This document shows, one piece after another, positions 17,342-56,857 of a DNA stretch of 64,000 bases. Source of the DNA: an uncultured Acidobacteriota bacterium. Lineage in GTDB: Bacteria > Acidobacteriota > Vicinamibacteria > Fen-336. Location: the NCBI GenBank assembly GCA_963703985.1, contig CAVPGH010000001.1, positions 1,122,746 to 1,186,745 of the forward strand, given 5' to 3'. Position numbers and translations under genes: made by a program. How positions within the stretch are numbered: the first letter of the stretch is position 1; every line of letters begins with the position of its first letter. Under the pieces are notes generated by a model that saw only the letters and a program-made list of their open reading frames with translations, had not been told where the DNA came from and searched no databases.

Positions 17342-18493
17342 TTGACCCTTCATCTCTCCGTTCTCGCGCTCCTGGTCGCCGGTCTCGCCCCGCCGTCTTC
17401 CCTCTCCGCAGCGACGCGCGACGGCCCGATCTTCCGGACCGCGTCCGTGAACGGCGCGCGATCGGAGGAAGTCTTCCGCCGCACCCGCCGCATGCTCCAC
17501 GCCTGGCTGGCCTACGCGGACGCGCGGACGCTCCTGCTCCCCGACGTCCTCCCCGGCTTCAAGCGCGGACCGCAGGGCCTGGGCATCTACCGGCCCCACA
17601 ACTCCGGCGCCGACAACTATCCCTACCTCGTCGCGACATCCTTCTTCACGGACCGCGCGCTCTTCGAGGGCCGGATGCGCGAGATGCTGCGCAACGAGAT
17701 CCTCTACACGAACGCGCTCGACCAGATCCCGGCCGACCTCGACCTGCCCCGCGCGAAGCTCGGCCCCCCCAGCCTCTTCGGGGCCGCGGAGTACGCGAAA
17801 GACGGGCTCCTCGCCGTCACCGAGCTGCTCGGCCGGAGCCCCTGGTTCTATCGCATGGCGGACATGACGGCCTCGCTCATGGAGCACGCGCCGGTCAAGA
17901 GCGCCTTCGGAAACCTGCCCGACCCGGGAGCGGAGCTGAACGGCGACGTGCTGCAAACCCTGGTGCGCCTCGCCCCCATGACCGGGGACCGCCGGTTCCT
18001 GGAATGGGCGGAGCGGGTCGGCGATGCCTATGTTCAGGAAGTCCTGCCCCGCAACCACGGCCTTCCCGGGTACACCTGGGACTTCGAGAAGCACGAAGGA
18101 CCCGACCGCATGCGCCTGCGCGACCACGGCAACGAGATCGTGGTGGGCCTGGTGCTCCTGCACGCGCTGGAGACCGACCGCGGGGGAGCGCGCGCGACCT
18201 CCTACACCGAGCCGCTCGCCCGCATGCTGGACCGCATCCTCGCTTCCGCCAACCCCGACGGCCTTCTCTTCGACGACATCCGGGCCTCCGACCTCGTGCC
18301 CCGGGAGACGAGCCTCTCCGACAACTGGGGCTACGTCTACGGTGCGATCTACACGTTCCACATGGTCACCGGCGATCCCCGTTACCGCGAGGCGGTCCTG
18401 AAGGTGCTGCGTAACCTGCCCCGCTATCGTGGGTACGACTGGGAAAGGGGGAGCCAGGATGGCTACGCCGACTCCATCGAGAGCGCGCTCTAA
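17342..18493 (+). CDS. hypothetical secreted protein (N-terminal part of a gene apparently split by an in-frame TAA)
   Basis: TTG/ATG start with signal peptide MTLHLSVLALLVAGLAPPSSLSAAT; ends TAA at 18491-18493; the next ORF is in the same frame 3 nt later. Confidence 0.45.
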   Translation: MTLHLSVLALLVAGLAPPSSLSAATRDGPIFRTASVNGARSEEVFRRTRRMLHAWLAYADARTLLLPDVLPGFKRGPQGLGIYRPHNSGADNYPYLVATSFFTDRALFEGRMREMLRNEILYTNALDQIPADLDLPRAKLGPPSLFGAAEYAKDGLLAVTELLGRSPWFYRMADMTASLMEHAPVKSAFGNLPDPGAELNGDVLQTLVRLAPMTGDRRFLEWAERVGDAYVQEVLPRNHGLPGYTWDFEKHEGPDRMRLRDHGNEIVVGLVLLHALETDRGGARATSYTEPLARMLDRILASANPDGLLFDDIRASDLVPRETSLSDNWGYVYGAIYTFHMVTGDPRYREAVLKVLRNLPRYRGYDWERGSQDGYADSIESAL

Positions 18494-18496
18494 CTC

Positions 18497-18979
18497 GTGG
18501 CCCGCGAGCCGGTCCCGGAAGCGCTCGACTGGATCGAGAGCGAGGTGAAGACGCTCATCGCCTTCCAGCAGCCGGACGGGACGATCGAGCGCTGGTACGG
18601 GGACGGAAACTGGGCGCGGACGCTGCTGCTCTACGCGATGATGAAGACGCAGGGCTGCTACCTAGAGAACTGGCAGGAAGGCGTGAAGCTCGGGGCCGTC
18701 CGCGACGGCGAGCGGCTCCTCGTCTCCCTGGAAGGGCCGCCCGGGTTCAAGGGGAAGCTCCACTTCGACTACGCCCGCCACCGACGCTCCTTGAACTTCG
18801 CCCGCAACTACGTCCGCCTCAACGAGTGGCCGGAGTGGTTCGCAGTCGACGAGACGACGCTCTACCGCGTGGTGGACGGCCGTGGGCGCGAGGAGATCCG
18901 GCTCGGGTCCGAGCTCGTGGAGGGGATCTCCGTCTCCGCCCCCGCCCGTCTCGTGGTCGACAAAGCCGACCTCAAGTAG
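18497..18979 (+). CDS. in-frame continuation ORF (QxxDGxW-like repeat; alpha/alpha-toroid-like?)
   Basis: Starts GTG 3 nt after the TAA, same reading frame as 17342-18493; IAFQQPDGTIERWYGDGNWARTLLLYAMM; probably the C-terminal part of the same protein. Confidence 0.35.
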   Translation: MAREPVPEALDWIESEVKTLIAFQQPDGTIERWYGDGNWARTLLLYAMMKTQGCYLENWQEGVKLGAVRDGERLLVSLEGPPGFKGKLHFDYARHRRSLNFARNYVRLNEWPEWFAVDETTLYRVVDGRGREEIRLGSELVEGISVSAPARLVVDKADLK

Positions 18980-21594: not shown

Positions 21595-23288
21595 ATGCAG
21601 ATCGTGGCCAAGGCGAAGACGTACGACGTGTGCATCGTCGGCTCCGGCGCCGGAGGCGGCATGGCGGCCAAGGTCCTGGCCGAGGCGGGCGCCGATTGCG
21701 TGCTCCTCGAGGCGGGGCCGATGTGGGCGGCGAACAAGGACGGCGCGATGTTCAAGTGGAACTACGAGTCGCCGCGCCGCGGCGGCGGCTCGCGCCTCCG
21801 GCCCTTCGGCGAGTACGACGGCTGCATCGGGGGCTGGGACATCGAGGGCGAGCCCTACACCGTGGCCGAGGGCGATCGCTTCCTCTGGTTCCGCGGGCGG
21901 ATGCTCGGCGGGCGCACGAACCACTGGGGGCGGATCTCGCTGCGGGCGGGACCCTGGGACTTCAAGGGGAGGAGCCGCGACGGCCTCGGCGACGACTGGC
22001 CCATCGGCTACGATGACCTCAAGCCCTACTACGACCGGCTCGACGAGCTGGTCGGCCTCTACGGGTCGAACGAGGGGATCGAGAACGAGCCGGACGGGAT
22101 CTTCCAGCCGCCGCCCCCGCCACGGGCCTACGAGGGGCTCATCAAGAAGGCTTCCGACCAGCTCGGCGTTACCTGCATCCCGGCCCGGCGCTCCGTCCTC
22201 ACGAAGCCCCTGAACGGCCGGGCCCCCTGCCACTACTGCGGGCAGTGCCACCGCGGGTGCTCCACCGGCTCCAACTTCTCGACCCCGTCCGTGCTCCTTC
22301 CCCCCGCGCTCGCGACGGGACGCCTGACCCTCGTGACCGGGGCCATGGTCCGGGAGGTGCTGACGAACGAGGAGGGCCTGGCCACCGGCGTGTCGTACGT
22401 GGACACCGCCACCGGGCGCGAGCAGCAGGTGCGCGCCAAGATCGTGGTCCTTGCCGCCAGCGCCTGCGAGACCGCGCGTCTGCTCTTCAACTCGAAGTCG
22501 CCGCGGCATCCCGCCGGCCTCGCCAACTCCAGCGGCGCCGTCGGCCGCTACCTGACCGACACCACCGGCTCTCACCTGAGCGGCCACGTCCCCGCGCTCG
22601 AGGCCCTGCCTCCCTACAACGAAGACGGCACCGGAGGCATGCACGTCTACATGCCCTGGTGGCTGGACAACCGCACGCTCGACTTCCCGCGGGGCTACCA
22701 CATCGAGCCCTGGGGCGGCCGCTCGATGCCCGGGATCGGATTCATGGGCGGCATCCACCGCCTGCAGGGCGGCGGTTACGGGAAGAAGCTCAAGGACGAC
22801 TATCGCCGGCTCTACGGCTCGTTCGTCGGCTTCGCCGGCCGCGGCGAGATGATCCCCAACAAGGACTCGCTACTGCGAGATCGACCCGCGCGTGGTGGAC
22901 AAGTGGGGGATCCCCGTCCTGCGCTTCCACTGGAAGTGGTCGGACTACGAGCTCCTCCAGGCCCGGCACATGCAAGAGACGTTCGTCCGCATCATCGAGG
23001 CCATGGGGGGCAAGGTGATGGGCGACGTGCCCGGCCGGGCCGAGGAGTACGGCCTGAAGGTCGGGGGCGAGATCATCCACGAGGCGGGCACCACGCGCAT
23101 GGGCACGAGCCCGCTGCACCTCGGTCCTGAACGAGTGGTGCCAGGCCCACGACTGCAAGAACGTGTTCGTGGCGGACAGCGGGCCCTTCGTCAGCAACGC
23201 CCACAAGAACATGACCTGGACGATCCTCGCCCTCTCCATGCGGACGAGCGAGCACATCGTCGAGGAGCGACGGAAGGGGAACCTCTGA
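21595..23288 (+). CDS. GMC-family FAD oxidoreductase (glycoside 3-dehydrogenase-like catalytic subunit); two apparent +1 frameshifts
   Basis: N-terminal FAD motif [23 protein letters not shown]. Homology continues in a second frame from about 22866 ([19 protein letters not shown]...) and a third frame from about 23120 ([56 protein letters not shown]), matching the intact paralog at 58014-59708. Stop TGA overlaps the next gene's ATG. Confidence 0.7.
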
Positions 23289-23943
23289 TGAGCGAGATCG
23301 CACGACGTTCGGCCCTGCGCCTGATCGGGGGCGCGCCCCTCGCCGCGGGCTTCGGTCTGGGCGGGGGCGGGGGCGGCGCGGCGCCGGGGAGCAGGCGGCG
23401 AAGGCGGTGGCCGCCTCCCGCCAGGGCGTCGTCTACAAGCCGAGGTTCTTCACCGCCCACGAGTGGGAGACGGTGCGCGTGCTCGTGGACCTGATCCTCC
23501 CGCGCGACGAGCGGTCGGGCAGCGCCACCGACGCGGGCGTGCCCGAGTTCATGGACTTCTTCCTGACCGATCCCTACGAGGACGATCGCTCCCGCGAGAG
23601 CCGCCAGACCGCGATGCGGGGAGGCCTCGCCTGGATCGACGCGGAGTGCCGGCGCCGCTTCGGGGGCAAGGACTTCACGGAGTGCGCGGCACGCCGAGCA
23701 AGCCGCGCTCCTCGACGACATCGCCTACTGGAAGGGCGACGAGGAGGACGACCGGGCGATGCGCGACCGGGGCCCGCACGTCCTCCTGCGCCACGGCCCC
23801 AACTTCTTCAATTCCTTCCGGGACCTCACGGCCTCGGGCTTCTGGAGCAGCAAGATGGGCGTCGAAGATCTCGGCTACAAAGGCAACACGTTCGTCGTGG
23901 AGTTCCAGCCCCCGCCCGCGGAGGTCCTGCGCAAGCTCGGGCT
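23288..23943 (+). CDS. gluconate-2-dehydrogenase subunit-3-family small subunit (Tat signal), frameshifted
   Basis: [25 protein letters not shown] twin-arginine signal, then a frame change to ...AKAVAASRQGVVYKPRFFTAHEWETVRVLVDLILP..., and another to ...EQAALLDDIAYWKGDEEDDRAMRDRGPHVLLRHGPNFFNSFRDLTASGFWSSKMGVEDLGYKGNTFVVEF. No stop before the downstream DUF1080 ORF. Confidence 0.55.
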
Positions 23944-24694
23944 CGTGGTCGCGCTCGTCGCCTTCCTGGGGCCGGCGGCGGTTCGCGCCGCCGACGTCGG
24001 CAACTGGCCCATCCACGACCGCACCCGTCCCGCCCCGAAGGCGGTCGATCCGGGCACCGCCAGCACGCAGGAGCAGCCAGGCAAGCCGCCCTCGGACGCG
24101 ACCGTGCTCTTCGGCGGGAAGGACCTCTCGCTCTGGAAGTCCAAGAAGGACGGCGGCCCCGCCAAGTGGAAGGTGGAGAACGGCTACATGGAAGTCGTGA
24201 AGGGAACGGGCTACATCGAAACGGCCCAGGGCTTCGGCGACTGCCAGCTCCACGTGGAGTGGATGGCCCCTTCGCCGCCGGTGGGCCAGGACCAGGACCG
24301 CGGCAACAGCGGCGTCTTCCTGATGGGCCAGTACGAGGTGCAGGTGGTCGACTCCTATGAGAGCGCGACCTATCCCGACGGCCAGGCCGCGGCCCTCTAC
24401 GGTCAGTACCCGCCCCTCGTCAACGCCTCGCGTCCGCCCGGCCAGTGGCAGACCTACGACATCGTCTTCCACGCGCCGCGCTTCGACGCCGAGGGGAAGG
24501 TGACGCGGCCGGCGCGGGTGACCGTCCTGCACAACGGGGTGCTCGTGCAGGACGACGCGGAGCTCACCGGCCCTACGGCGCACAAGGCGCGCCCGCCCTA
24601 CACGGCCCACCCCGCGAAGCTGCCCCTCGCCCTGCAGGACCACGACCACCCGGTCCGCTATCGGAACATCTGGGTCCGGGAGCTGGCGGAGTAG
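23944..24694 (+). CDS. DUF1080 (3-keto-disaccharide-hydrolase-like, laminin-G jellyroll) protein
   Basis: Putative GTG start giving signal peptide VVALVAFLGPAAVRAADV; WKVENGYMEVVKGTGYIETAQGFGDCQLHVEW...NSGVFLMGQYEVQV...LPLALQDHDHPVRYRNIWVRELAE is characteristic of DUF1080. It is in frame with the upstream small-subunit ORF without an intervening stop. Confidence 0.65.
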
Positions 24695-24741
24695 GAGCCG
24701 CAGATACCGTCACGCGGGAGGGCTCGGCCGGAGATCGAGCG

Positions 24742-25964
24742 CTAGCGCGGGGTCCGCGCCGCCGGCCGCGCCTGCGCGGACCGCTTCTCGATCAGGAACG
24801 CCGCGAGGTCGGCCATGTCGCCGGGCCCGAAGCGTGGCCAGAGCACGCCCAACTTGCGCGATTCCTCTTCCATTTTCGGCGCGTGGTTCCACATCGCCGC
24901 GATGATGGCGATGGGGTCGTCGAGCTGGGGCACCTCGGCCAGGTTCGGCCCCAAGGCCGCGGCGGTGTGGCACCGCGAGCAGCGTTCCTCGAAGAGGCGG
25001 GCGCCGCGAGAGGGCGTGCCGCGAACGTCGGCGTAGTTCACGAAGTAGAGGTAGGCGATGATGTCCGCCATCTGCTCGCCCGAGAACTTGGTGTGGCTGA
25101 TCCCGCGGCGGGCGAACTCCGCGACCATCCCCTGGCCGTGGTTCCACATGACGCCGGCGATGGCCGATACCGAACCGATCAGCTCCCGGCGTCGCGTCCC
25201 GAGCTCGGGGCCGCCCCGGCCGCCCGTCCCGCCAACCGAGTGGCAGGCGTCGCAGCGCTTCGCGGCGAACAGGTCACGACCGCGCCGCGGGCTGCCGGGC
25301 TCGAAATACACGGGCTCGGCGCGACCCCACGTTGCCTGCCTGCAGGTAGCCGAGCAGGTCGCCCATCTCCCGACCCGCGAACCTGGGCCAGGGGATGCTC
25401 TGTCCCCGCATCAGCTTGGCCATCTCGGGCCCATGGTTCCACATCGCCTGGGCCAGGAAGATGGGCGAGAAGCGCCCCCGGTAGCGGTCCAGGCTCGGCC
25501 CGGGCTTGTCCCAGGAGTCGCCGCCTCCGTGACAGCTGCACGCATCCCTTGGAGACGAAGACGGCATGGCCCGCCGCGGGATTCGCCGGCTCCCCGACTT
25601 CGGTCAGGTAGTAGCGGTAGGCCGTGAGGAAGGCGACGAGGTCGGCCATCTCGCGGCTCGTCATCGTCGGCGCGGGGATCTTGAGGTCCTGCATCTTCTC
25701 CCGCATCACCGGAGAGTGGTTCCAGAAGGCGCCGGCGATGTCGAGCACCGTCCCCGTCAGGTGAATGCGTCCGAGGTCGGGCCCGACGCGCGCCTCCTCC
25801 CCGCCCAGCGAGTGGCAACGGACGCAGGCCTTCGTCACGAAGAGCCGCGCGCCGGCCGTCGGGTTGTTCGGCAGCTCGACCGAAAGGCGCACCGAGGGCT
25901 CCTCGGCCGCCGAGACGACACTCAGGCCGAGCAGGGCCACCGAGCCCAGGAGCCGGGCGCGCAT
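24742..25964 (-). CDS. c-type cytochrome of four tandem homologous monoheme domains (frameshifted)
   Basis: Signal peptide MRARLLGSVALLGLSVVSAAEE. Four repeats each carrying G.RLF...C..CH (CVRCH, C.SCH, CDACH, CSRCH), (A/V)xWNHxPxM, and MADLxAFL. Reading-frame changes at about 25570 and about 25320; the ATG overlaps the NrfD stop (TGATG). Confidence 0.6.
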
Positions 25965-27274
25965 CAGGCACCCACCTCGGCCATCTCTGCACCGGGGTGG
26001 TCGGCCCGCGTCCTGCGGCGCCGCCTCCTCCAGCTCCCAGATCGAGATGATCGGAAACAGCTTCGTGAACCCCATGTACAGCAGCGCGAAAGCCGCAAAG
26101 CAGCCCGCCATCAGCGACCACTCGACCCAGCTCGGCGCGTATCCGAAGCCGTGGATCGGCGCCCGCGGGTTCGAGAGCGACGGCACCACGATCGTGAAGC
26201 GCTCGAGCCACATCCCGATGTTGACCGAGATCGACGCCACCACGGTCCCCGCCACCGTGCGCGTCTTGTTGTTGGCCAGGATCACGAACGGGATCACGAA
26301 GCAGAAGACGAACATCGCCCAGAAGTAGGGGGCGAAGTGGCCCGAGAACTTGGCGTCGAAGACCGCGATCTCGTTGGGCTCGTGCGCGTACCAGGTCGTC
26401 AGGTACTCCGCGAAGGTGAAGTACAGCCACAGGCACGCCATCACGCAGCAGCAGCAGCCCGAGGTTGTTGAAGTGGATCGGCTTGCAGGTAGGCCTCGAG
26501 CCGGTACACCTTCCGGACGATCACCATCGCCGTGATGATGGCCGCGATCCCGGAGAAGATCGCCCCGACCACGAAGTACGGCCCGAAGATCGTGGAGTGC
26601 CACATCGGCTGGATCGTCATGGCGAACACCCACGACACCACGGTGTGCACGGAGACGGCGATCGGAATCACCAGGATCGCCATCACGCCGATGGCTCGCT
26701 CGAGGCGGTGCCATTGCTGCGGCGTGCCCGTCCAACCGAGCGACAGCCGTCGCGTAGAACCGGTGGCGCCAGCCTCGCCGTCCGATCGCGCAGCAGCGCG
26801 ATGTCCGGGATCAGCGGGCAGGTACAGGTAGAGGCTGCTGGCGGTGAGATAGACGCTGATGCTGGCCACGTCCCACAGCAGCGGCGAGCGGAAGTGCGGG
26901 TGCAGGATGACGTTCAGGGCGCGATCCGGCCGCCCCAGGTCCAGCAGCACGTTGCCGACGCCGAAGAAGAGCACCAGGACGGTGATCACCTCGGCCATCC
27001 GCGTGATCGGCCGGCGCCACTCGGCCTGAACGATGCGCAGGATCGCCGAGATCAGCGTCCCGGCGTGAGAGACGCCGATGAAGAAGACGAAGTTGGTGAT
27101 GTAGAGCCCCCAGTACACCGGCCGGCCGAGCCCGGTGGCTCCGAGGCCATGGATGAGCTGCCACGACCAGGCCATGACCGCCCAGGCGACCACGGCCGCC
27201 AGGCCGAGGGCCCATCGCCTGAAGGAAGGCCCCGTCGTCAGGACCGGCTCGAGGATGGCCGTGCTCTCCCTGCA
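25964..27274 (-). CDS. NrfD/PsrC-family integral membrane quinone-interacting subunit (frameshifted)
   Basis: Pieces in three frames: PSFRRWALGLAAVVAWAVMAWSWQLIHGLGATGLGRPVYWGLYITNFVFFIGVSHAGTLISAILR... and ...LWLYFTFAEYLTTWYAHEPNEIAVFDAKF...GMWLERFTIVVPSL...: polytopic NrfD-like. ATG at 27274 is 2 nt after the FeS-gene stop. Confidence 0.65.
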
Positions 27275-27276
27275 TG

Positions 27277-27956
27277 GCTACTCGCCCTCGCGCAGGTAGA
27301 CCACCTTGGGTCGCGTGCCCAGCTCCTCCATGAAGCGGAAGGCGCGTGCGCTCTCCACCAGCGGGGCGACGGGGTCGTGCGGATCGTCGAGATCGCCGAA
27401 GACCAGGGCCTCGGCGGGACAGGTCTGGACGCAGGCCGGCACGTAGTCGTCCGGCGCCAGCTCGCGCCCCGCCGCGCGCGGCGCGCTCGCGTGCCAGCAT
27501 CAAGCGGTGATGACAGAACGTGCACTTCTCGACGACGCCCTTGGGCCGCACCGACACGTCCGGGTTCATCATCGAAGCCATCGACTCGGGCCACTCCGGC
27601 GTGGTCCAGGTGAAGACCTTGACGGCGTAGGGACAGGCGTTGGTGCAGTAACGGCAACCGATGCAGCGCGGATAGACCTGCGCGACGATGCCTTCGGGGT
27701 TCAGGTAGGTGGCGCTCGTCGGACAGACGTCCACGCACGGCGGCCGATCGCAGTGCTGGCACATCAGCGGAAGCACGGCGGCCCCGGCGCGGCCCGGCAC
27801 CTCGGCCGGCACGAGCTGCAGCCAGGTCATGAGGCGGCCCTCGGCCGCGACCTCCGGCATCGAGAACGGCACGTTGTTCTCGTGCTTGCAGGCGACCACG
27901 CACGCCTGACAGCCGGTGCAACGGTCCAGATCGACGACCAGGCCCCAGCGCGACAC
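27277..27956 (-). CDS. 4Fe-4S ferredoxin-type subunit (PsrB/NrfC/ActB2-like), one frameshift
   Basis: GTG start with AGGAGG RBS; four Cys clusters (CTGCQACVVACK, CQHCDRPPCVDVCP, CIGCRYCTNACP, CTFCHH); after about 27460 the C-terminus continues in another frame (ELAPDDYVPACVQTCPAEALVFGDLDDPHDPVAPLVE...VVYLREGE*). Confidence 0.75.
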
Positions 27957-27966
27957 GAGATGCCTC

Positions 27967-30181
27967 CTAGGCGCGCGTGACGCGCACCATCAAATCCCCG
28001 CCGACGGGCGACGTCGTCCGCGAGCAGGCGCAGGTCCGAAGCGATTTTGCGCGCCCAGCGACCGCTCCCCGGGACGGCCGGCACGAAGGCGAGCGCGACC
28101 GAGTCGGCGGGCATCTTCTCGACCAGGACCGCCACCGCCTCCACCGCGCCCCGCGGCGAGACGATCCGGATGCGGGCGCCCGCCCCGACCGCCAGCGCGC
28201 GCGCGGTCTCGGGGCTCAGCTCGGCCCAGGCCTGCCACGGCGCGCCGTCCGGCTGGCCGAGCAGCTCGAAGAGCGCGGGCTGGTTGGGGCTGCCCCGGTC
28301 GGTGACGAGGGCCGGCTTGAACGGAACGAGGCGCAGGGGATACTCGGCGGCCCCGACCCGCGCCGACGAGCGCCCGGCGGCCGCTTTCGCCAAGGCCACG
28401 GCCGGCGATGAAAGGCGCAGGCCCGCGCGGGCGCGCAGCGATTCACGGACCCGCCCCGGGGTGACGTACGGGTCGGCCCAGCCGCCGGCCTCCACCACCG
28501 CCGCGGCGAACGCTTCGCGGGATGGCGCCGGGGCGACCCACCAGCCGCCCTTTTCGAGCTGCCGCACCCATTCGGTTTCGTAGAGGTCCGAATAGGGAGC
28601 GCCGCGCCTCAGGCCACAGAGCCGCTCCAGCTCGTCGTGAACGACGTCGTCCGAGGCCGTCCATGGGCACGCGCCGGCGAGCGGCTCGCCCGCGCCGACC
28701 GCGACGTCCTTGAGCAGAGAGGCCGCGTCCTTCGTGGACAGCAGCGGCTTGACGGCCGGCTTGGCGATGGCCACCGCTTCGAGGGCAGCGGCCTGAGCCG
28801 GCAGCGTGGCGTGCCAGCTCTCGAGAGCCGTGTGCGTTGGCATCAGCAGGTCGGCGATCGCCGCGGCTTCGTCGAGGAAGGGGGAGAAGCTCACGACGAG
28901 GTCCGTCGGCCGCAGCGCCGCCCCCAGGTTGCGCGGCGATGCCAGCGCGCGCAGCGCCGAGGCGTCCCGGAAGGCCAGGATCGCGGGACGGATCCGGCCC
29001 TCGGCGACCTCCCGCAGCGTCGTCGTCGCGTCTTCCACCTCGGCGGCCGGGCGCCGGGGCGCGCAGGTCACGCCGCCCGCCCGGTCGAACGCGCCGATGA
29101 GCGCATTGAGGGCGAAGACCGCCTCGACCAGGGAACGGTCGGCATCCGCCGCCACCACCGCCAGCGGTCTGGCGCTGCTGGCCAGCTCGCGGGCCAGCCG
29201 GAGCACCGTCACCACCGGCACACCGGTCACCGAAGCGACGTCGTCGGGCGTGTAGTTGGCGGCCACCTCGCGCTCGAAAGCGGCGAGGTCGCCCCCCAGG
29301 TCGTCGAGGAACGCGCGGTTGACGCGGTTCTCGCGCAGCAGGACGTAGGCGATGCCGTAGGCGAGCACGGCCTGCCTTTCGGAATGGACCGCGAGCCACT
29401 CGTCGGCCTTGCGCGCCGTCATCGAGCGGCGGGGCTCGATCTGGACCAGCCTTCCCCGCGCGCCGGATCCGCGCCGGAAGCGGCCGTAGCTGCGCTGGGT
29501 CCAGACTCCCGACAGCCAGTCCTCGGCGACCGGCGCGCCGAACGACAGCACGTAGCTGGCGTGCTCCAGGTCGAAGAGCGGATCCGCGGAGACGCCGGTC
29601 AAGGCCCGGAAGGCAGGGCCGAGCCGGGCCGCGCTAGCGGCCCGCGTCCACACGACCCGGGCGCCCGCCGCCGTCCAGAAGCGCGTCCAGGCGTCGGCCA
29701 AAGGCCCCTCTTCTTCGGAAGCGAGGGCAAGCACGCCTTGGCGCCCACCGCCGGCATCCCGCAGTCGCGATGCCAGGAGGGCGATCGCGGCGTCCCACGT
29801 GATCGGCTCCCACTGCCCTTCGCCTCTCTTCCCCACGCGTCGAGCGGGGCCCACCAGACGGTCGGGGTCGAAGTAGGACTCGAGCGATGCCTGGCCCTTC
29901 GCGCACAGCCGCCCGCGCGAGACGGGGCAGAGCGGGTTGCCCTCCAGCTTGACCGGCGCGCCGTCCATCAGCCGTACGCGGATCCCGCAGGCCGCCGGGC
30001 ACTCGCGACAGACGCTCGTGGCCCAGCTCTCGACGCCTCGTCCCCGCCAGCCGGCGGCGCGCTCGTCGGCGCGCGCGAGCTGTCGACGGCCCAGCTCCCC
30101 GAGCGTGATGCCGGCGAGGGTCGCGCCCCCGTAGACCAGGAAGTCCCGGCGGCTCAGCGATTGGTCGCTCATCGATGGCAC
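27967..30181 (-). CDS. molybdopterin-oxidoreductase-family catalytic-like subunit (PsrA/ActB1-like), Tat-exported
   Basis: MSDQSLSRRDFLVYGGATLAGI Tat signal; N-terminal FeS motif CRECPAACGIRVRL...CPVSRGRLCAKGQA; about 735 aa. The ORF-track frame runs on to 27827, but the likely true end is ...GDLMVRVTRA* in another frame (stop at about 27967) just before the FeS-gene RBS. Confidence 0.75.
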
Positions 30182-30651
30182 GCCGCGCAGTCCTGGCTGG
30201 CGCCCTCACGCTTGTGGCAGTCGAGACAGGCGTTCATATCCAAGCGCATCGGTGGGCGCCCGGGCGGCACGGCGCTCGTCCCCACGTCCGCGTGGCACGA
30301 CGCACACTCGAGCCGGGCGAGGCCGACGTGGCGCCGGTGAGAGAACATGACGTGCTCCGGGAGATGGGAAACGCGCAGCCAGGCGATCGGCTGGGCGCGC
30401 CCGGCCTCGTCCCATTTCACCCCCGCCGCGGCCCTCGGAGCCGTGGCGTGGCACTTCAGGCACACCGCCGCCTCGGGGATGCCGGCACGGGCTTGCTCAA
30501 AGGCGCCGCGGTGGCAGACGCCGCAGCCCATCCCTGCATGCCGGGCATGGTTGAAGGCGACAGGCTGGGCGAGGGGCGCCCGCGGCAGCAGCAGCATCCA
30601 TGCGCCGGCCACGGCCAGCGTCAGCGCGGCGAATCGAAGCAATCGGCCCAT
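30169..30651 (-). CDS. pentaheme c-type cytochrome (NrfB/ActA-like)
   Basis: Signal peptide plus five CxxCH motifs (CGVCH, CLKCH, CASCH, CLDCH, CAACH) in 160 aa; overlaps the Mo-subunit start by 13 nt. Confidence 0.75.
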   Translation of the reverse strand: MGRLLRFAALTLAVAGAWMLLLPRAPLAQPVAFNHARHAGMGCGVCHRGAFEQARAGIPEAAVCLKCHATAPRAAAGVKWDEAGRAQPIAWLRVSHLPEHVMFSHRRHVGLARLECASCHADVGTSAVPPGRPPMRLDMNACLDCHKREGASQDCAACHR

Positions 30652-30663
30652 GAGGGAAGCGGC

Positions 30664-31077
30664 CTAAAGGCCGGGTTTCGCCGCCGCCTCTTTGAGCTTC
30701 TTGTCGTAGAGCTCCTTCTTGCGGATCTTCGAGTCGTACACGACGAACTCGAAGATCTGCTTGCCCTCGTCCGGGCTGATGAAAGTGCCCGCCTTGCGCA
30801 TCATCCTCTTGATGTAGCGCTCCCACTCGTCGTCGAGGACGAATTCGCAGTTGATCGCGCGGGCCGGCGTGTGGCACTTGCTGCACTTCGTCAAGAAGAC
30901 CTTGTAGCGGGCCTTCATGTCTTCGGGGTACTTGGAGACGTCGATCTTGGCCGGACCCTTGTCATACGCGAGGATCCGCGGATCGACCGGCTCCTCCTTG
31001 TCCTGGGCCACGATCTTCAGGGCGAGCGCCGCGAAGGCCAGCAAGACAAGCGCGGTGACCGTAACGGTACGTGTCAT
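30664..31077 (-). CDS. monoheme c-type cytochrome, secreted (lysine-rich, lower GC)
   Basis: Signal peptide MTRTVTVTALVLLAFAALALK; single CSKCH; GC visibly lower (about 60%) than the flanks. Confidence 0.6.
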   Translation of the reverse strand: MTRTVTVTALVLLAFAALALKIVAQDKEEPVDPRILAYDKGPAKIDVSKYPEDMKARYKVFLTKCSKCHTPARAINCEFVLDDEWERYIKRMMRKAGTFISPDEGKQIFEFVVYDSKIRKKELYDKKLKEAAAKPGL

Positions 31078-31093
31078 GTCGGAAGCTCCTCCT

Positions 31094-33793
31094 CTAGAAG
31101 TTCAGGATGTAGGACACACCGAAGATGCTCACCCCGTAATTGAACGGCTGCTCGTTGGTCGGCAGCACGCCGCTCAGCGACCCGAGCTGCATGCCCTCGT
31201 AGGCCGGGTCGTTGGATCGCATGCGCAAGTACGAGTAGTCCAGGCGCACCGACTGGCGCTTGTCGATCGCGAATCGGCCGCTCAGGCGCAGCTCGCCCGT
31301 GTTGGTGGTGATCGTCGGCATCGGGGCGCCCGCGATGAAGAACGCCGCGATGGTCGTCGGAGGCCCGCCCGGGCCGTTGAGGATGTTGTTGGCCCAGTTT
31401 CCGCCCGCCGCTGCGCTGGTGTCCGACCGCGCGCGGGACAGGATCAAGTTGCCCAGAAGGTCGAAGCTGCCGGCCCGCTTCCGCAACCCGACGCCCACCG
31501 TGTGCACCTTGTCGAGCATGTTCGTGGACCAGTCCAGGCACGGGTCCAGCTTGTTGTTGTTGTTCCGCTGTTGCAGCGTGGTGTAGCCGTCGCAGCTGTT
31601 GCCCGAGAGGCCGACCGCCCCTGGCTGACCGTTGTTCAAGGCGGCCACGTTGCTGTTGGCCGTATAGCTGTTGCCCGCGCGTCATGGGAACTGAAGTTCT
31701 CGTACGTGTAGCAGACGTTCACGCTCGTGGCGTCGCCCAGCGCGTAGGTCCCGTCGACGTTCACGGCCCAGTTCTTTGCGTCCTGAACGCCGTAGGTCGA
31801 GCCGGGGTAGCGGTCCTTGTTGAGATCCAGGCCGCCCTGGAACGACAGCTGCTCGGTTGCCTGCCAGCTGAGCAACGCGCGCAGCTTGTCTCGATTGCGA
31901 TCCGCCACGTAGTAGCGGCGCATCCCCGGAAGCTCGCTGATCCGGTTGTTGTTGGCGTACATCGCGTTGGCCAGGGCGTTGTTGCTCGGGAAGAACAGGT
32001 TCATGTTGCCGGTGGTGACGGCGAAGCCGGCCGCAGGTCCCCATCCGTTCCAACCGTTCGCCTGCATGAACGAAAGAGCGGTCGCGCCCCCGGTCGCCGC
32101 GGCCGGGCTGACGTTGGCGTACGGGACCAGCGCCAGGAAGGCGTTCTCGTTGTAGTCCGGCGCTCTGCGCGCGGAATACGCATAGCCGACCCGGGCGGTG
32201 ACCTTCTCACCCAGCGTGCGCCCGCCATTCGGCCCGCAGCGTGTGCTCGTTGGTCGTCGCCGCATCCGCGCAGCTGATCCAGGACGCGAAGCAGGCGCGG
32301 TCGATCTTCTCGAACTCGTAGCCGACCTTGATCCACTGGCCCTTCACGAAGCCGTAGTCGGCCTCGGCGGTGACCTGATTGAGCTTCCTGCTGTACGGAC
32401 GATTGGCGTTTGCGTTCTGTGCGACAACGGCGCCGAGAGGATTGTTGGGGCCGGCGGGGAAATTGGCGTTCGCCGCGGGCGCTTCGCCGGCGTCCGCGTA
32501 CTGGTAGATGTTGACGGCGGTGCGGTTGTCGCGGTCGTCGTACCTGTACGCCGCGGTCAGGGTCAGCTTCTTTGCCGGCCGGGTCGTGAATCGGCGTTGA
32601 ACGTCGTGGTCACGACGAGGCCGTCCAGCGAGCTGACCGGCACCACCGGCGTCGTCGCATCGGTCAGGAACGCGTCGTTCTGCGTGTTGCGTCGCGTACG
32701 ATCCGGTCGCGACCAGCTTGGTGGTCGAGCGAGAAGTTCATGCCGCCGGTCGCGTTCCACTGGTTGAAGGTGTTGCCCGGCGTGCTGCTCATGGTGTTGA
32801 CCGACCCTCGTGGGGGTCGCCCAGTTCTGCCACGACATGAACGGCACGTTGTTCTTGAAGAACGAGCCGTAGTACCCGGCCTGCGCGAAGCTCTTCGGGC
32901 CCGTGAAATTCAGACTCATGGCGACCTGGTTGTGATCGGTGTCGATCACATCGGGAATGATGGTCGAGATGTCGGCGCCGGTGTTTCGAGAGACCGTCCC
33001 CATCGGCTTCACACCGTCCTTGTGCTCGGGCCGGAAAGTCACGTCGACTCCCCAGCGCTGGTCGAAGTTGTAGTTGAGGCCGACGTCGAACCTCGTGCGC
33101 TTCGTGAACAGGTTGAAGTTGTGGAACAGCGGCACGTCGGCGGCCGCGGCGGCGTCGACGAGCGCCGTCTGGGCCGCGTTCGGCGTTCGCAACGCGCCCA
33201 TCGCCGGCGAGTTCGTCGCGACGTCGATGTAAGGCGCGTCGCCGATCGCCGGGATGAGGCCTCGCGCGCTGACGATGTTCGTCGTGTTGTTGGTGCCGCT
33301 GCTTCCGGCCACCGTCGGTACGATGCCAGGATCGCGGCAACGTGAGGACGTTCGTCCCCGTGCCGTTGAACGGCGTCTGATACGTGTCCGATCGGTTCCG
33401 GCGCAGCTCGTCGTAGCCGAACGTCAGCCGGAACTTGCCCTGCTGGCCGATCTGGGCGGATGCATTCGCGATCTCGAGGCCGAGATCGGTGCCCTTGATG
33501 CGCCACCGCAGCGTGCTGTCGCTGTTGTAGCCGGCGGCGCCGCCGCGCCAGTCGAGGTTGCCGATGCCGAACGCGCCCTTGTTCTCGAGGCCGTTGTATT
33601 CGCCGGCCTTGTAGGACCCGTCGCCGACGGTGCCCGCGCCGACTTCGACCGTGCTCGTCGGCTTGGTTTGGGCTTCCGCATGGGCAGCGTACGCGCGCCA
33701 GCGCCGCCGCGAGCGCGACTCGAGCGACGGCCACGCGAGCCCGGGTAGGCGAATTCGCTGTGCGTTTGTCATGACATCGCTCCCTGATCGCAT
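31094..33793 (-). CDS. MtrB/PioB-family outer-membrane porin (decaheme-associated beta-barrel), multiply frameshifted
   Basis: About 900 codons spread over at least three frames (ORFs 32789-33793, 32563-33312, 31636-32265, 31094-31648). Recurring beta-strand, Gly/Asn/Tyr-rich composition and the motif GYDELRRNRSDTYQTPF; terminal YILNF aromatic C-terminus; lies immediately downstream of the decaheme cytochrome. Confidence 0.55.
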
Positions 33794-33797
33794 CGGG

Positions 33798-34824
33798 TTA
33801 GCGCTGGAACTTCGCGCCGGCCGGGTGATTCGAGCCGTGAATCAGCACATGACAGTTCAGACACGCGCGCGCGCCCGCCTGGGCGCGCGGCGCCGCCGCG
33901 CCGGGCTGCTGAAGCCCGTTGATGGTGGTCACGTCGCCGACCGCCAGGTTCGCACCGCTGTTGACCTGTGCGCCGTGGTCGCCGCTGTGGCACTCCTGGC
34001 ACAGCCACGGCGCGCGCGCCTTGAGCAGCGGTGCGTTGCTCGAGCCGTGCGGCGTGTGGCAGTTGGTGCAGTCGTCCGAGACCGGCGCGTGCTCCCAGAG
34101 GAACGGGCCGCGCTTCTCGGGATGGCAGGTGAAGCAGGTCTCGTTGACCGAGTTCTTGACGAGCATCTTCGGACCGGTCGACCCGTGCGGGTTGTGGCAG
34201 TCCGAGCAGGCCATCTTGGCGGCGCTGGCCAGGCTGGTCACCGCCAGCGGATGGGTCGAGATGCGCCGCGTCTGCGCGCGCTGCGCCTTGTGGCAGGTGA
34301 AGCAGACGTCGGCCTGGGTCGCCTTGCTCAGCACCTTCTGTTCGGGAGCGTGGATGTTGTGGCAGTCGGTGCAGGCGACGCCACGACCCTCGTGCTGGCT
34401 GGCCGGTCCAGTAGGAGCGCAGGCCGGCCTCGTGGCACGACAGGCACTTGGCATTGCGTTCGGCGACGGGCGAGGCTTTCCGCCCCTTGTACACGATGCC
34501 CACCGGATTGCTCGTGACGGCAATGTGGTCGGGACTCGCCCCGTGACACGTTTCGCACAGGTGCTGGGCGAACGGCGTGCGCTGATCGCCCTTGACGGCG
34601 TGCGGCGTCTGGAGGATCAACGTGGTCGGCTCTTGGTTGTGGCACTCGCGCAGGCAGGTCTGCACGGGATTCGGCGCGTACTCCGGCGGTCCGGGCGCGG
34701 GCGCAGAGGTCGGCTCCTGGTCGGCGCGCGCCGGCGCGGTCGCGACGGTGAGCGCGGCGAGGACCAGCGCGCCGATGTGGGCAGCGTGTCTTTGGCGTTG
34801 CACGGAACGGGCGCGGATTGACAT
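33798..34824 (-). CDS. decaheme c-type cytochrome (MtrA/MtoA/PioA-like), one frameshift
   Basis: ATG at 34824 with AAGGAG RBS; signal peptide MSIRARSVQRQRHAAHIGALVLAALTVATAPARA. Hemes 1-3 (CLRECH, CETCH, CLSCH) are in one frame. Hemes 4-10 (CTDCH, CFTCH, CSDCH, CFTCH, CTNCH, CQECH, CLNCH) are in the frame of ORF 33798-34523. Total ten CxxCH in about 340 aa. Confidence 0.7.
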
Positions 34825-34859
34825 GGGTTCTGCGCTCCTTCGACAGAGAGCCGTCGGCT

Positions 34860-35312
34860 TCACCGCCACTTCTCCGCGGCCCCGGACTTCGGAAGGAGGC
34901 TCATGAGGTGCTCGACCAGGTCGGTCAGCTCCGCGTCGGACATCTGAGCGCCCCAGCCGGGCATCCTGTACGGCGGCCGCGGACCTTTCGCGTCCTCGCG
35001 GCCGATCGTCGCCAGGCCATCGAGGATCTTCTTCTTCAGCTCGGCGCGCGTGAACCCCTCCGCCACGAACGTCAAGCCGGGCACTTTGCCGTCTGTCTCC
35101 GCGTTCCGGTTGGCGAACCCGCCCTTGGCGTCGGCGCCGTGGCACAGCCCGCACCCGTAGCGCTCGTAGACGCGGCGGCCGCGTTCCGGAGCGGCCTCCC
35201 GGCCCGCGTCACGGGGCACGGCGCGAACGATACGGGGCAGCGGCGTCCGCGTCTGGGCCCAGGCGGCCATGCCCAGCAGGACCAGCAGCGCGAACGGGAG
35301 CAGCCGCCTCAC
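34860..35312 (-). CDS. monoheme class-I c-type cytochrome, secreted
   Basis: Signal peptide MRRLLPFALLVLLGMAAWAQ; CGLCH; 150 aa. Confidence 0.65.
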   Translation of the reverse strand: MRRLLPFALLVLLGMAAWAQTRTPLPRIVRAVPRDAGREAAPERGRRVYERYGCGLCHGADAKGGFANRNAETDGKVPGLTFVAEGFTRAELKKKILDGLATIGREDAKGPRPPYRMPGWGAQMSDAELTDLVEHLMSLLPKSGAAEKWR

Positions 35313-35369
35313 GCCCCCAACGATGGGCCCCGAGAATTAAGGAACGATGAAACGCCGGTGAGGGACGCC

Positions 35370-36851
35370 TTAATCCAGCGAGGACGCCGGGTCGGCTTGG
35401 GGGGCCGGCTGGGAAGGGGGCGATCCGGCCCCCTCGGGCGCACTTGGCAGGTAGACCGCGAAAGTGGACCCCCGGCCGGGGACGCTGGTGAGCTTGATGG
35501 TGCCCCGGTGCAGCCGCACGATCTGCTCGACGATGGCGAGACCGAGGCCGGAACCGCCCGTGTCGCGAGCACGCGCCGGATCCGATCGGTAGAACGGCTC
35601 GAAGATGTGGGGCAGATCCTGTGGCTCGATCCCACAGCCGTGATCCACGACCATCACCATCGCGTGGCCGTGGGGCCGCCCAACGGTCACGACGACGTTG
35701 GACGCGGCCGGAGAATAGCGGATCGCGTTCTGGAGCAGGTTGAGCACGACCCGCCGCAGGTGGAGCGGGCTGCCGAGCACCAGGGGGCGGCCCTGGATGG
35801 ACGTCTCCACCACCACCTGTTTCTCCTCCGCCATGGCGCTCGCGATCTCGCAGCACTCCAACACGAGCTCGGCCAGGTCCACGCCCTCGGCCACCTCCAG
35901 CATCTGACCTCGATCGGCCAGGGCCAGCAAGCGCAGATCACGGATCAGCGTCGACAGGCGCTCGGTCTCCTCGAGCAGGCCGGCGGCGAGCGCGCGGTAG
36001 TCGGTCGGAGTCCGATCCGCGCGCAAGCACAACTCGACGGCACCGCGCATCGCGGCCAGCGGCGTCTGCAGCTCGTGCGACGCGTCGGCCGCGAAGCGGC
36101 GGGCGCTGCGGAGCGATCCCTCGATCCGGTCGAGCATCTCGTTGAGGGTCGTGGCCAAGCCGTCGATCTCGTCGCTGCCGGTACGCGCCTCGAGCCGCTC
36201 GTTGATGTGGGCCGATTGGATCAGCTGGACCCGGCGCACGATCTCGTCCACCGGGGCCAGCGCCCGGCGCGCGGTGAAGGCGCTGCCGTAGCTCGCGAGC
36301 ACCAGCACCACCACGATGGACAGCACCATCCCGAGGGCCAGGCGGACCTGGTCGCGGCGCACCGGCTCCACCGAGGCCGCCAACTGCACGATCAGGCTCT
36401 CCGCTCCCGGTCGTGGGACCACGGCCGTCGCGACCCGTAGCGGGGCTCCCGAGATGTCCGCCACGGTGATGAGCGGCGTGCGCTCGCGGACCGCCGCCGC
36501 GGCCGCGCGCTCGCTCGCCCAGTCCAGCCGCGGGAACCCCCGCGAGCGGAAGAGCACCGGTCCGGACGCCTGGCGCACGAGCACCGGCGCCTCCGCCGCC
36601 ACCTCGCTCGCGAGAACGCTTGCCACGTCGAGGGTCAGCAGAGCCGCGCGGCGATCCGCCACGAACCCGAGCAGGCGCACTTGCAGCTCGCGATCGAGCT
36701 CGTGGTAGGAGGTCCGCGCCTGGCTGACCAGGACGAACACGGCCAGGGTTCCGAGCGCGCCGCTGAGGGTGAGCAGGTACCAGAGCGTCAGGCGGGTGCG
36801 AAGGCTCCTAGGGCGAAGTCGAGCCAGGATCCCCAAGGACATACCCCACAC
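35370..36851 (-). CDS. sensor histidine kinase (CusS/CzcS heavy-metal-sensor-like)
   Basis: Two TM helices with periplasmic loop, HAMP, H-box ASHELQTPLAAMRGAVE, and HATPase G-boxes (DHGCGI, GGSGLGLAIV). Confidence 0.8.
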   Translation of the reverse strand: MWGMSLGILARLRPRSLRTRLTLWYLLTLSGALGTLAVFVLVSQARTSYHELDRELQVRLLGFVADRRAALLTLDVASVLASEVAAEAPVLVRQASGPVLFRSRGFPRLDWASERAAAAAVRERTPLITVADISGAPLRVATAVVPRPGAESLIVQLAASVEPVRRDQVRLALGMVLSIVVVLVLASYGSAFTARRALAPVDEIVRRVQLIQSAHINERLEARTGSDEIDGLATTLNEMLDRIEGSLRSARRFAADASHELQTPLAAMRGAVELCLRADRTPTDYRALAAGLLEETERLSTLIRDLRLLALADRGQMLEVAEGVDLAELVLECCEIASAMAEEKQVVVETSIQGRPLVLGSPLHLRRVVLNLLQNAIRYSPAASNVVVTVGRPHGHAMVMVVDHGCGIEPQDLPHIFEPFYRSDPARARDTGGSGLGLAIVEQIVRLHRGTIKLTSVPGRGSTFAVYLPSAPEGAGSPPSQPAPQADPASSLD

Positions 36852-37494
36852 CGCGGACGGCCACTATCAGGCTGGGCCGCCCGGGAACGTCGAGCTTCTC
36901 GCGCAAGTGCTTGACGTGAACGTCGACCACGTTGCTCCCGGGATCGAAAGTGCAGTCCCACACGTGCTCGGCGATCATGGCCCGAGTCAGCACGACACCG
37001 GACCGCCGCATGAGGTACTCCAAGAGCGCGTACTCCCTCGGGGTGAGGGCGATCAGCCGGCCGGATCGCTTGACGGTGTGCGTCGCGGGATCGAGATCCA
37101 GGTCCCCGGCGGTGAGGACCGGCGCTTCCGTGACGCGGTGGCGCCGGCTCAGGGCGCGCAGGCGCGCCGCCAGTTCCTCCAGCGCGAACGGCTTGACCAG
37201 GTAGTCGTCGGCTCCCGCATCCAGCCCACGGACGCGGTCCTCGACCATGTCCCGCGCCGAGATGATGAGGATCCGGGTCTTGTTGCCCGCCGCGCGAAGG
37301 CGCTTGCAGACGGTCAGGCCGTCGATGCCGGGCAGCATCAGGTCCAGCACGATCGCGTCGTAGTCGTAGGTGGCGGCCAGCTCCAGAGCGCTCGGGCCGT
37401 CGTGTGCGACGTCGACGGCAAACGACTCCTCGGCGAGCGCCCGACAGATGTAGTGCGCCATGCGCCGCTCGTCCTCGACGACCAGGAGCCTCAA
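36808..37494 (-). CDS. OmpR-family response regulator (CusR-like)
   Basis: Receiver MRLLVVEDERR...DLMLPGIDG...wHTH VRGVGYVL; the likely TTG start at 37494 restores the receiver N-terminus (the ORF-track start 37581 is too far upstream). Confidence 0.75.
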   Translation of the reverse strand: MRLLVVEDERRMAHYICRALAEESFAVDVAHDGPSALELAATYDYDAIVLDLMLPGIDGLTVCKRLRAAGNKTRILIISARDMVEDRVRGLDAGADDYLVKPFALEELAARLRALSRRHRVTEAPVLTAGDLDLDPATHTVKRSGRLIALTPREYALLEYLMRRSGVVLTRAMIAEHVWDCTFDPGSNVVDVHVKHLREKLDVPGRPSLIVAVRGVGYVLGDPGSTSP

Positions 37495-37756
37495 CTGGTT
37501 GCCCGGCGCGGCTCGGCCCGCGCTACTCGACCCGGTGCCCCAGGTCGTGCGGCAGGCCGAGGTCCTTGATCTGCCCGACACCCTTGTCGAGCAAGCCCGC
37601 TGACCGGCAAGGTCGGGTCATCGGGGCGAAGGTGGACGTTCTGCGGCATGGCTCGCGGTATCGCGAGCGACAACTATGCCGCGGGCGCGGGCTGCGCGCA
37701 AACGCCGAGTAGTCAAAGCGCCTCGAAGGTCCCGAAAAAGCCAGGTCCTATCCCTC

Positions 37757-41418: not shown

Positions 41419-41483
41419 GCCCGCTTCGGCCGACGGGCGGGACCGAGCCGTCCCGCCCGTCGTGGTTTGCCCCCTCGCTACCG

Positions 41484-41580
41484 CTCGCCCTCCAGGACCA
41501 CGACCACCCGGTCCGCTATCGGAACATCCGGGTCCGGGAGATGGCGGGTGGGAGCGGCAGGTACCGTAACGCGGGAGGGC
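41484..41580 (+). repeat. orphan copy of the 3' end (+ ~30 nt downstream) of the DUF1080 gene at 24627-24723
   Basis: About 97 nt at roughly 87% identity to 24627-24723, including the coding tail LALQDHDHPVRYRNI(W/R)VRE and the downstream non-coding sequence; stop codon lost (GAGTAG to GAGATG); no upstream DUF1080 body. Confidence 0.55.
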
Positions 41581-45206: not shown

Positions 45207-45264
45207 CTGGCGCAGCGGTCGACCCGCCCGACGGCGGCGGGAAGTCATTGAAGGGCCTGGTAGG

Positions 45265-54537: not shown

Positions 54538-54552
54538 CGGATGCTCTCCATC

Positions 54553-56824: not shown

Positions 56825-56857
56825 CGAGCCCCCGTTCGCGGCCCCCCGCCCGCCGGG

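Follow-up and report, generated by a model that had tools for sequence, protein, structure and literature searches.

Clustered single-base insertions in sugar-oxidation and electron-transfer genes of a Vicinamibacteria-like bacterium are most probably long-read consensus errors

GC3 frame analysis has a classic use in spotting sequencing frameshifts in actinomycete sequences, and the historical frame-plot cases were gel compressions in Sanger reads. In such high-G+C DNA the GC3 signal changes frame in mid-gene although no stop or start codon intervenes. Multiple frameshifts in several adjacent genes are also found in pseudogene decay, that is reductive evolution under relaxed selection, and a deletion bias is generally described for bacterial pseudogenes. 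Conserved genes are likewise split by single-base indels in long-read (Nanopore or PacBio) assemblies, where the errors are seen by comparison with relatives and are absent from short-read assemblies; the classical profile is one of indels tied to homopolymers, most of them deletions (PMC12007338). For the Nanopore-only MAGs of Microflora Danica, the gene-splitting indel issue has been acknowledged (PMC12313526).

The locus reported here lies in a window (the whole stretch of DNA that was analysed) of 64,000 nucleotides. GC3 frame segmentation gave recurring same-strand frame switches solely at ~22.8-35.3 kb, and in this sequence of ~70% G+C the signal changes frame mid-gene as it does in the frame-plot cases. 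Nucleotide alignments to relatives resolved 24 single-base insertions in conserved coding sequence between 22868 and 34406 (Table 1). With two further inferred insertions and two intergenic ones, the total is ~28 extra single bases in a 12.5-kb stretch in which sugar-oxidation and electron-transfer genes are broken; one 1-nt and one 2-nt deletion accompany them. These extra bases are specific to the window and, the two deletions apart, are the sole lesions of the region. A preliminary description had reported at least 12 frame changes beyond which homology continues in another frame, in a run starting at 21595. Every place that it listed holds an event and the frame changes are real, far beyond chance, but the tally was too low; three compensating triplets had been hidden, and the first event is at 22868.

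Table 1. Genes and spacers of the frameshift cluster, with the events found in each (+1, one extra base) and the Pfam matches of the translations
Feature	Position	Strand	Events	Product and Pfam matches
GMC-family FAD oxidoreductase	21595..23288	+	+1 at 22868 (C), 23115 (T)	563 aa when repaired; GMC_oxred_N, GMC_oxred_C
Gluconate_2-dh3 small subunit fused to 3-keto-disaccharide hydrolase (DUF1080)	23288..24694	+	+1 at ~23363 (G, in G run), 23382 (C), 23690 (C); DUF1080 part clean	both domains found
Cytochrome c, four mono-haem domains	24742..25964	-	+1 at 25539; 2-nt deficit at 25323	Cytochrom_C
NrfD-family membrane subunit	25964..27275	-	resolved +1 at 26446, 26485, 26750, 26775, 26818	NrfD, covering 5-309 of 313 when repaired
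4Fe-4S ferredoxin-type subunit	27278..27992	-	+1 at 27481	Fer4 families
Molybdopterin-oxidoreductase-like subunit	27967..30187	-	single +1 at 28005, otherwise clean	Molybdopterin, Molybdop_Fe4S4, Molydop_binding
Cytochrome c7-like multihaem gene	30169-30651	-	intact	Cytochrome_C7
CxxCH protein	30664-31077	-	intact	137 aa
MtrB/PioB-family outer-membrane porin	31094..33772	-	ten +1, at 31680, 31685, 32219, 32694, 32729, 32803, 33325, 33696, 33750, 33764; single 1-nt deletion at 32595 (CCC to CC)	889 aa when repaired; PF11854 in its homologues
MtoA-porin spacer	33784		extra base (alignment with L001)	
Decahaem MtoA/MtrA-like cytochrome	33801..34827	-	+1 at 34406	ten CxxCH when repaired; Paired_CXXCH_1
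Spacer just upstream of intact cytochrome c gene 34863-35312	35322		extra base (alignment with L001)	

The cluster is sharply bounded. Event density is ~2.4 per kb inside it and zero in the ~45 kb of flanks, which are spanned by ORFs with end-to-end Pfam matches; at the inside rate the probability of no event outside is ~1e-47. In the ~11 kb outside the cluster for which relatives of 82-90% identity gave alignments, no unpaired coding indel was found; the GMC paralogue at 58014-59708 is uninterrupted. The cluster is also patchy. Events occupy ~22.9-28.0 kb and ~31.7-35.3 kb, and 23691-25322 and 28006-31679 are free of them (p=3e-5 for the latter gap). Three unrelated operons, both strands and the spacers are all affected. 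Within the cluster region we found no nonsense codons, large deletions, insertion sequences or mobile elements, and scans of the sequence for rRNA, tRNA and Rfam families gave no matches.

Comparison with orthologous loci, as the preliminary description had proposed, gave genes uninterrupted at every site in close relatives (L001 at 90% and L103 at 87% nucleotide identity, and several short-read MAGs). When tblastn was run with the relatives, the frame switched 1 to 2 to 3 along the GMC gene, -3 to -1 to -2 along the four-domain cytochrome c gene, -3 to -1 along the FeS subunit (against seven relatives) and -2 to -3 at 34403 in the MtoA-like gene. The extra bases of the GMC gene are missing in 6/6 relatives and in L103 and L104. 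That of the four-domain cytochrome breaks a CxxCH motif, which reads CVSCH once the base is removed. In the molybdopterin subunit the extra base stands 12 codons ahead of the stop, so that the ORF as read extends to 27827; the repaired tail (...DLMVRVTRA, then the stop) is identical to that of L001. Two more insertions probably lie at the ends of the NrfD gene, near 25990, where the stop codon in the TGATG junction (TGA) is displaced by one from the frame, and near 27260, since the start codon at 27275 (ATG) shows the same displacement. The pair at 30169..31077, inside the longer clean gap, has full-length translations and no 1-nt gaps against L001.

With the extra bases removed, every affected gene translates end to end without internal stops, the repaired ORFs terminate at the stop codons of L001, and Pfam matches are full length. 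The porin is an intact 888-aa ORF in L001. Its homologues number 551 at E<=1e-30, and the best 120 of the 551 are mostly 870-910 aa long and all carry PF11854; the closest homologues, PF11854 proteins that JGI names MtrB/PioB, share 88% identity with the repaired porin. Next to it lies the gene for the decahaem cytochrome (10 x CxxCH), so that the two form a putative pair of MtrB/PioB beta-barrel porin and periplasmic decahaem cytochrome. An absent stop codon at ~23945 was considered as a deletion lesion between the small subunit and DUF1080 and was rejected as such: ten homologues of 465-468 aa, the closest 84% identical, have the same Gluconate_2-dh3 and DUF1080 two-domain layout, and the fusion is natural.

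The consistent +1 direction is the one observation that speaks for programmed recoding, in which ribosomal +1 frameshifting or transcriptional slippage would let the genes be expressed across these sites. Such recoding is effectively refuted because the sites are not conserved, the ORFs being uninterrupted in all relatives and in hundreds of homologues listed. The sites share no slippery or stimulatory motif, few are homopolymers, up to eleven of them would be needed in one gene, and spacers are hit too; we regard the chance of recoding as negligible.

The repaired genes evolve at an ordinary pace. Against L001, dN/dS is 0.17 for MtoA and 0.35 for the porin, and intact neighbours range over 0.23-0.33. 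Outgroup polarisation assigns 19 porin changes to the window branch and 46 to that of L001, the window branch being the shorter; for MtoA the figures are 9 and 10, respectively. The window lineage thus has no excess of amino-acid change and no sign of relaxed selection, and there is little doubt that in the organism these genes are whole and functional. This bears on genuine and very recent pseudogenisation, in which a real burst of +1 events (left, for example, by local error-prone repair synthesis or by end-joining) would have inactivated three adjacent redox modules before substitutions could accumulate. The clustering in loci of related function is conspicuous and would suit such an event, as would a gene-breaking change other than an indel, the nonsense codon that a different gene has at 18491 (TAA, where L104 has TAC). 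Decay in the usual sense resembles the locus in its multiple frameshifts across adjacent genes; it differs in its nonsense codons, larger deletions and mobile elements, which are missing from the region, in dN/dS and branch lengths, which show no relaxation here, and in indel direction.

Resolved single-base insertions outnumber deletions 24:1 (sign test p=1.5e-6), opposite to the deletion bias usual in bacterial pseudogenes, and the inserted bases are mostly non-templated relative to their neighbours. Pseudogenisation would moreover have to place ~28 indels without detectable substitution excess, to repeat events in already dead genes while keeping them tightly clustered, and to spare the largest gene of the operon, the 2.2 kb molybdopterin subunit. 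Among the repeat events are three bursts, each of three +1 within 70-110 nt and net +3, which restore the frame (26750/26775/26818, 32694/32729/32803 and 33696/33750/33764). We consider pseudogenisation improbable. Somewhat less probable still is the proposition that the extra bases are real and record a localised, insertion-only mutational burst in two patches of the chromosome, which might come from non-templated nucleotide addition in repeated break repair or from error-prone gap filling. Were it true, it would amount to a very recent knockout of a porin-cytochrome pair for extracellular electron transfer, an NrfD complex that oxidises quinol and a sugar dehydrogenase.

At the 22 typed sites, the inserted bases on the + strand are C (9), G (9) and T (4), and on the coding strand C makes up 11/22; the earlier impression of frequently an extra C thus holds loosely for the coding strand and fails for the + strand. 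Several of the base-level reconstructions offered with it are wrong or doubtful; ctgacc becoming ctgCacc does not describe the event at 23115, which is an extra T. Only 4/24 insertions extend a homopolymer (3/22 in the initial set), which rules out homopolymer slippage as the cause, and the sites are not of low complexity either. Neither a shared k-mer nor a methylation-type motif was found across the 22 site contexts, so the methylated or low-complexity context that had been suggested finds no support. No long repeats or close paralogues were found at the patch borders; cross-mapping from repeats or paralogues was rejected, the second GMC gene sharing only an 80-nt arm at 78%. The patches correlate neither with divergence from L001 nor with G+C, and the clean stretch of the molybdopterin subunit is the most G+C-rich part.

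The identity of the inserted bases brings in strain mixture, a sub-mechanism of assembly error in which a polisher retains the two alleles of a polymorphic site next to each other and SNPs between co-assembled strains become single-base insertions. In 19/22 cases the base inserted is unlike its neighbours, and 17/18 inserted G or C adjoin a complementary strong base (p=8e-4). Such a pattern is expected of merged G/C alleles; GT[G]C at 25539, for instance, could stand for GTG/GTC. Allele merging nevertheless predicts enrichment at third positions, where nearly all polymorphism lies at ~94% GC3, whereas the codon-junction classes are 8/7/7, with no codon-position bias, and 14/22 touch a third position against a chance expectation of 67%. 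Several of the implied alleles would also be radical replacements (W/C, C/R), and we hold merging of this kind to be very unlikely.

Two relatives in the same clade as the window, L008 and L009, are Nanopore-only Microflora Danica MAGs assembled with Flye and Medaka (PMC12313526), and both have insertion-dominated clusters at positions other than those of the window. Compared with the short-read MAG L007, their unpaired single-base differences are all extra bases in L008 or L009. On contig CAVRVJ010000002.1 of L009, the porin gene carries 12 lineage-specific insertions and 3 deletions, again at positions unlike the window's. The GC3 of L008 and L009 is too low for their errors to be mapped with the GC3 HMM. 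The short-read MAGs L003-L007 have no such lesions in the FeS-NrfD-cytochrome region, nor have L001, L004 and L006 in the conserved MtoA-porin sequence. That similar clusters occur in Nanopore-only MAGs of other species and in no short-read MAG is a further point against pseudogenisation. If the insertions were nonetheless a real burst, the L009 cluster would indicate a process recurring on this outer-membrane gene.

The frameshifts are most probably localised long-read consensus errors in functional genes. The preliminary description had left the choice between consensus error and decaying pseudogenes open. Error is now strongly favoured, as relaxed selection and a mixed lesion spectrum, the marks of decay, are both missing. 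The grounds are that a single kind of lesion occurs, almost always a +1 insertion; that repair yields complete genes, which are under purifying selection and do not evolve fast; that like lesions are seen in Nanopore-only MAGs and none in short-read relatives; that events ignore codon position, strand, operon and gene/spacer boundaries; that three bursts of three +1 events occur; and that the sole apparent non-indel lesion, at ~23945, is a natural fusion. The extra bases would then have arisen in base-calling or consensus and not in the cell, most likely in a long-read (Nanopore-type) metagenome assembly without short-read polishing, and would be restricted to the two poorly resolved patches. 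Low local coverage or strain microdiversity are our guesses for what confined them there. In the organism, the GMC oxidoreductase and its small subunit (the DUF1080 fusion), the NrfD/FeS/molybdopterin/cytochrome c module and the MtoA-MtrB/PioB pair would all be whole.

The errors would be atypical of their kind. The share of sites in runs and the excess of insertions are unlike the classical deletion-majority homopolymer profile (PMC12007338), and two patches are affected rather than the whole contig. The jump from ~45 kb of clean sequence to the density of the cluster, the clean gaps within it, the lack of repeats or close paralogues at the patch borders and the TAA at 18491 outside it likewise count against consensus error.

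An annotation that took the sequence at face value would be expected to report ~25 fragments or pseudogenes, and a metabolic reconstruction would infer the loss of MtoA/MtrB-type extracellular electron transfer, of the NrfD/FeS/molybdopterin quinol module and of the GMC sugar dehydrogenase. The affected genes of this Vicinamibacteria-like soil bacterium are under normal purifying selection and, with their frames corrected, should be treated as intact in annotation. The case is a warning that consensus errors in long-read MAGs from soil bacteria of high G+C can be dense, local, insertion-dominated and outside homopolymers; such errors would escape genome-wide quality metrics and homopolymer-focused polishers; the same gene family, the porin, is affected in the public Nanopore-only MAG L009.

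Two observations concern places outside the cluster. A frameshifted DUF1080 paralogue at 40.6-41.6 kb was considered and rejected, as ORF 40657-41418 is complete and unrelated and only a 71-nt remnant lies downstream of it. The in-frame TAA at 18491 represents at least one further lesion.

G+C content of the window is ~69% and reaches 90-100% at codon third positions, so that frame-aware segmentation reads out the reading frame directly. Same-strand frame switches were repeated within 22.8-35.3 kb and were found elsewhere only at gene boundaries. The genes concerned (Table) are all frequent in Acidobacteriota metagenomes, their full-length homologues numbering in the hundreds, and the module at 30651-24742 appears to resemble alternative complex III. 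The window was assigned to Acidobacteriota, class Vicinamibacteria, via related loci, and searches of it found no rRNA, tRNA or Rfam families.

The resolved extra bases are single bases of the window that are missing in all aligned relatives. The relatives were L001, a short-read Vicinamibacteria MAG (90.4% DNA identity over 27493-37533); the related loci L103 (86.7%) and L104 (85.7%), covering 20.3-24.7 kb and several control stretches; L023-L027 and L090 for the GMC locus (78-82% identity); and L003-L009 for 24.7-31 kb (67-83%). Every gene has an intact ORF in L001, including an 888-aa porin, and L103 and L104 carry an intact GMC gene (564 aa) and a small-subunit fusion of 465-466 aa. An event lies at each location where the preliminary description had named a frame change; that list had overlooked three compensating triplets of events, one of which scrambles the porin signal peptide, its flanking 20 nt being 100% identical to L001 DNA. 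The only deficits were the two tabulated.

Table. Coordinates in the window of genes, frame-changing events and control features (feature, position, strand or remark)
GMC FAD oxidoreductase; Tat-signal Gluconate_2-dh3 small subunit fused to 3-keto-disaccharide hydrolase domain	21595-24694	+
Cytochrome c7-like, molybdopterin-oxidoreductase-like, 4Fe-4S, NrfD membrane subunit, four-domain cytochrome c	30651-24742	-
Cytochrome c, decahaem MtoA/MtrA-like cytochrome, MtrB/PioB-family porin, small CxxCH protein	35312-30664	-
Two-component system	35370-37581	upstream of cytochrome c/MtoA/porin genes
Resolved extra bases, GMC and small-subunit fusion	22868, 23115, ~23363, 23382, 23690	alignment to relatives
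Resolved extra bases	25539, 26446, 26485, 26750, 26775, 26818, 27481, 28005	alignment to relatives
Resolved extra bases	31680, 31685, 32219, 32694, 32729, 32803, 33325, 33696, 33750, 33764, 34406	alignment to relatives
Inferred +1 event, NrfD start		ATG at 27275 one base out of frame with gene body
Inferred +1 event, NrfD/cytochrome TGATG junction	25964-25966	TGA one base out of frame with NrfD tail
Extra bases in spacers	33784, 35322	
1-nt loss	32595	CCC run
2-nt deficit	25323	variable loop
Control, OMP_b-brl_4		Pfam match 1-838/838
Control, Amidase		Pfam match 2-442/445
Control, DUF2264		Pfam match 1-353/353
GMC oxidoreductase, second sugar-oxidation cluster	58014-59708	also control Pfam match
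GFO/IDH/MocA oxidoreductase, same cluster	56858-57985	
TLC/MFS-HEAT fusion, same cluster	59772-62555	
Nucleoside:H+ symporter, same cluster	62599-63855	

The described run of frameshifts is confirmed, and its clustering is statistically extreme. ORFs outside it, spanning ~45 kb, gave Pfam matches end to end, and in ~11 kb of control DNA with relatives alignable at 82-90% all gaps were paired or lay in spacers; if events were as frequent there as inside (2.4 per kb), the probability of finding none would be ~1e-47. Within the cluster, 28006-31679 (p=3e-5) and likewise 23691-25322 were free of events.

The most economical reading, which we hold with high confidence from sequence comparison, is a localised consensus error of long-read assembly, in which errors would arise locally and the underlying genes would stay intact. 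Each repaired gene gives a stop-free translation end to end and the same terminating codon as in L001; repair turns the haem motif at 25539 into CVSCH and gives the MtoA-like protein back its ten CxxCH motifs. The dN/dS values against L001 were 0.17 (MtoA-like) and 0.35 (porin), compared with 0.23-0.33 for the intact kinase, regulator, cytochromes and Mo subunit, and outgroup-polarised derived residues numbered 19 on the window branch and 46 on that of L001 for the porin (9 and 10 for MtoA). Had the lineage drifted long enough to gain ~14 neutral indels within 3.7 kb, a large excess of substitutions would be expected; none was seen. Real, very recent mutation is improbable; it would require an insertion-only, largely non-templated process that struck genes already dead again and again, as many as eleven times, with no accompanying substitutions. 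Programmed recoding is excluded because the sites are not conserved.

Single-base insertions outnumbered single-base deletions by 24 to 1 (p=1.5e-6). The extra C described earlier as frequent follows no strand-consistent rule: at 22 sites the inserted base was C 9, G 9 and T 4 on the + strand and C 11, G 7, A 3 and T 1 on the coding strand, roughly tracking base composition. Run-extending insertions made up 3/22 (4/24 when two further sites are included) against ~49% expected (p=6e-4), and a complementary strong base adjoins 17/18 G/C insertions (p=8e-4); no longer motif common to the insertion contexts was found, including the shared k-mer that had been suggested as a check. Merging of alleles between strains would account for the non-homopolymer contexts but fails its codon-position prediction, the junction classes being 8/7/7, which indicates that insertion sites are blind to coding.

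Similar lesions occur in L008 and L009, public Microflora Danica MAGs for which Flye and a single round of Medaka were applied to Nanopore reads, without short-read polishing (PMC12313526). Wherever an unpaired single base separates L008 or L009 from short-read L007 (88-90% identical), it is L007 that lacks the base. The MtoA-porin region of L009 (4650-8480, CAVRVJ010000002.1) shows 12 insertions specific to its lineage, plus 3 deletions, at positions other than those of the window, with six frame changes in its MtrB/PioB porin; that of L008 is intact. In L008 (10586-15450, CAVRYD010000011.1) the Mo-subunit, NrfD and cytochrome genes together carry three extra bases, all of them single. No such lesion was found in conserved sequence of the short-read loci, either in the FeS-NrfD-cytochrome region (L003-L007) or in the MtoA-porin region (L001, L004, L006). 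Against consensus error speak the following observations: the textbook long-read profile of homopolymer-associated indels and deletions (PMC12007338) is unlike the signature seen here, and the patch boundaries are sharp, with no flanking repeats or close paralogues found and no tracking of G+C or divergence. In biological terms the cluster is most probably no real feature, and it is of use chiefly as a warning for annotation and quality control.

At 23288-24694 the Gluconate_2-dh3 small subunit continues stop-free into the 3-keto-disaccharide hydrolase (DUF1080) domain, with no stop in any frame at 23850-24120. The absent stop codon was rejected as a further lesion type, since both domains recur in one protein, with an adjoining GMC oxidoreductase, in ten homologues of 465-468 aa (76-84% identical), making the fusion natural in the clade. 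A 71-nt copy at 41477-41547, 93% identical to the 3' end of this DUF1080 gene (24619-24689) and encoding ...LPLALQDHDHPVRYRNIRVREMA, lies downstream of a complete unrelated ORF (40657-41418) and appears to be left over from a second DUF1080 gene.

An in-frame TAA (18491-18493) divides a conserved ~545-aa ORF (17342-18976) into 17342-18493 and 18494-18976. L104 (82.7% nt) has TAC (Tyr) there in an undivided 538-aa gene, and conservation and GC3 carry on beyond the stop. This nonsense substitution, which lies outside the cluster and may be real or an error of base-calling, is the sole such case among same-frame coding segments.

A ~207-nt direct repeat (45264-45467 and 50005-50211; 98% identity over 158 nt and 82% over the following 49 nt) encloses 4.7 kb encoding a Ser/Thr kinase with PD40 repeats, an ECF sigma factor and an unknown ORF. 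Its minus strand carries a tRNA-3'-end-like motif (GGTTCGAATCC...GAGCCA); ARAGORN and Rfam found no tRNA or tmRNA in it, and its folding is not better than that of shuffled sequences. The repeat could represent a duplicated attachment-site-like sequence.

The second sugar-oxidation cluster (54552-63901) is intact, with parts 82-87% identical to L103, where the counterparts lie <10 kb from the GMC-fusion pair; gene order thus differs between the window and L103.
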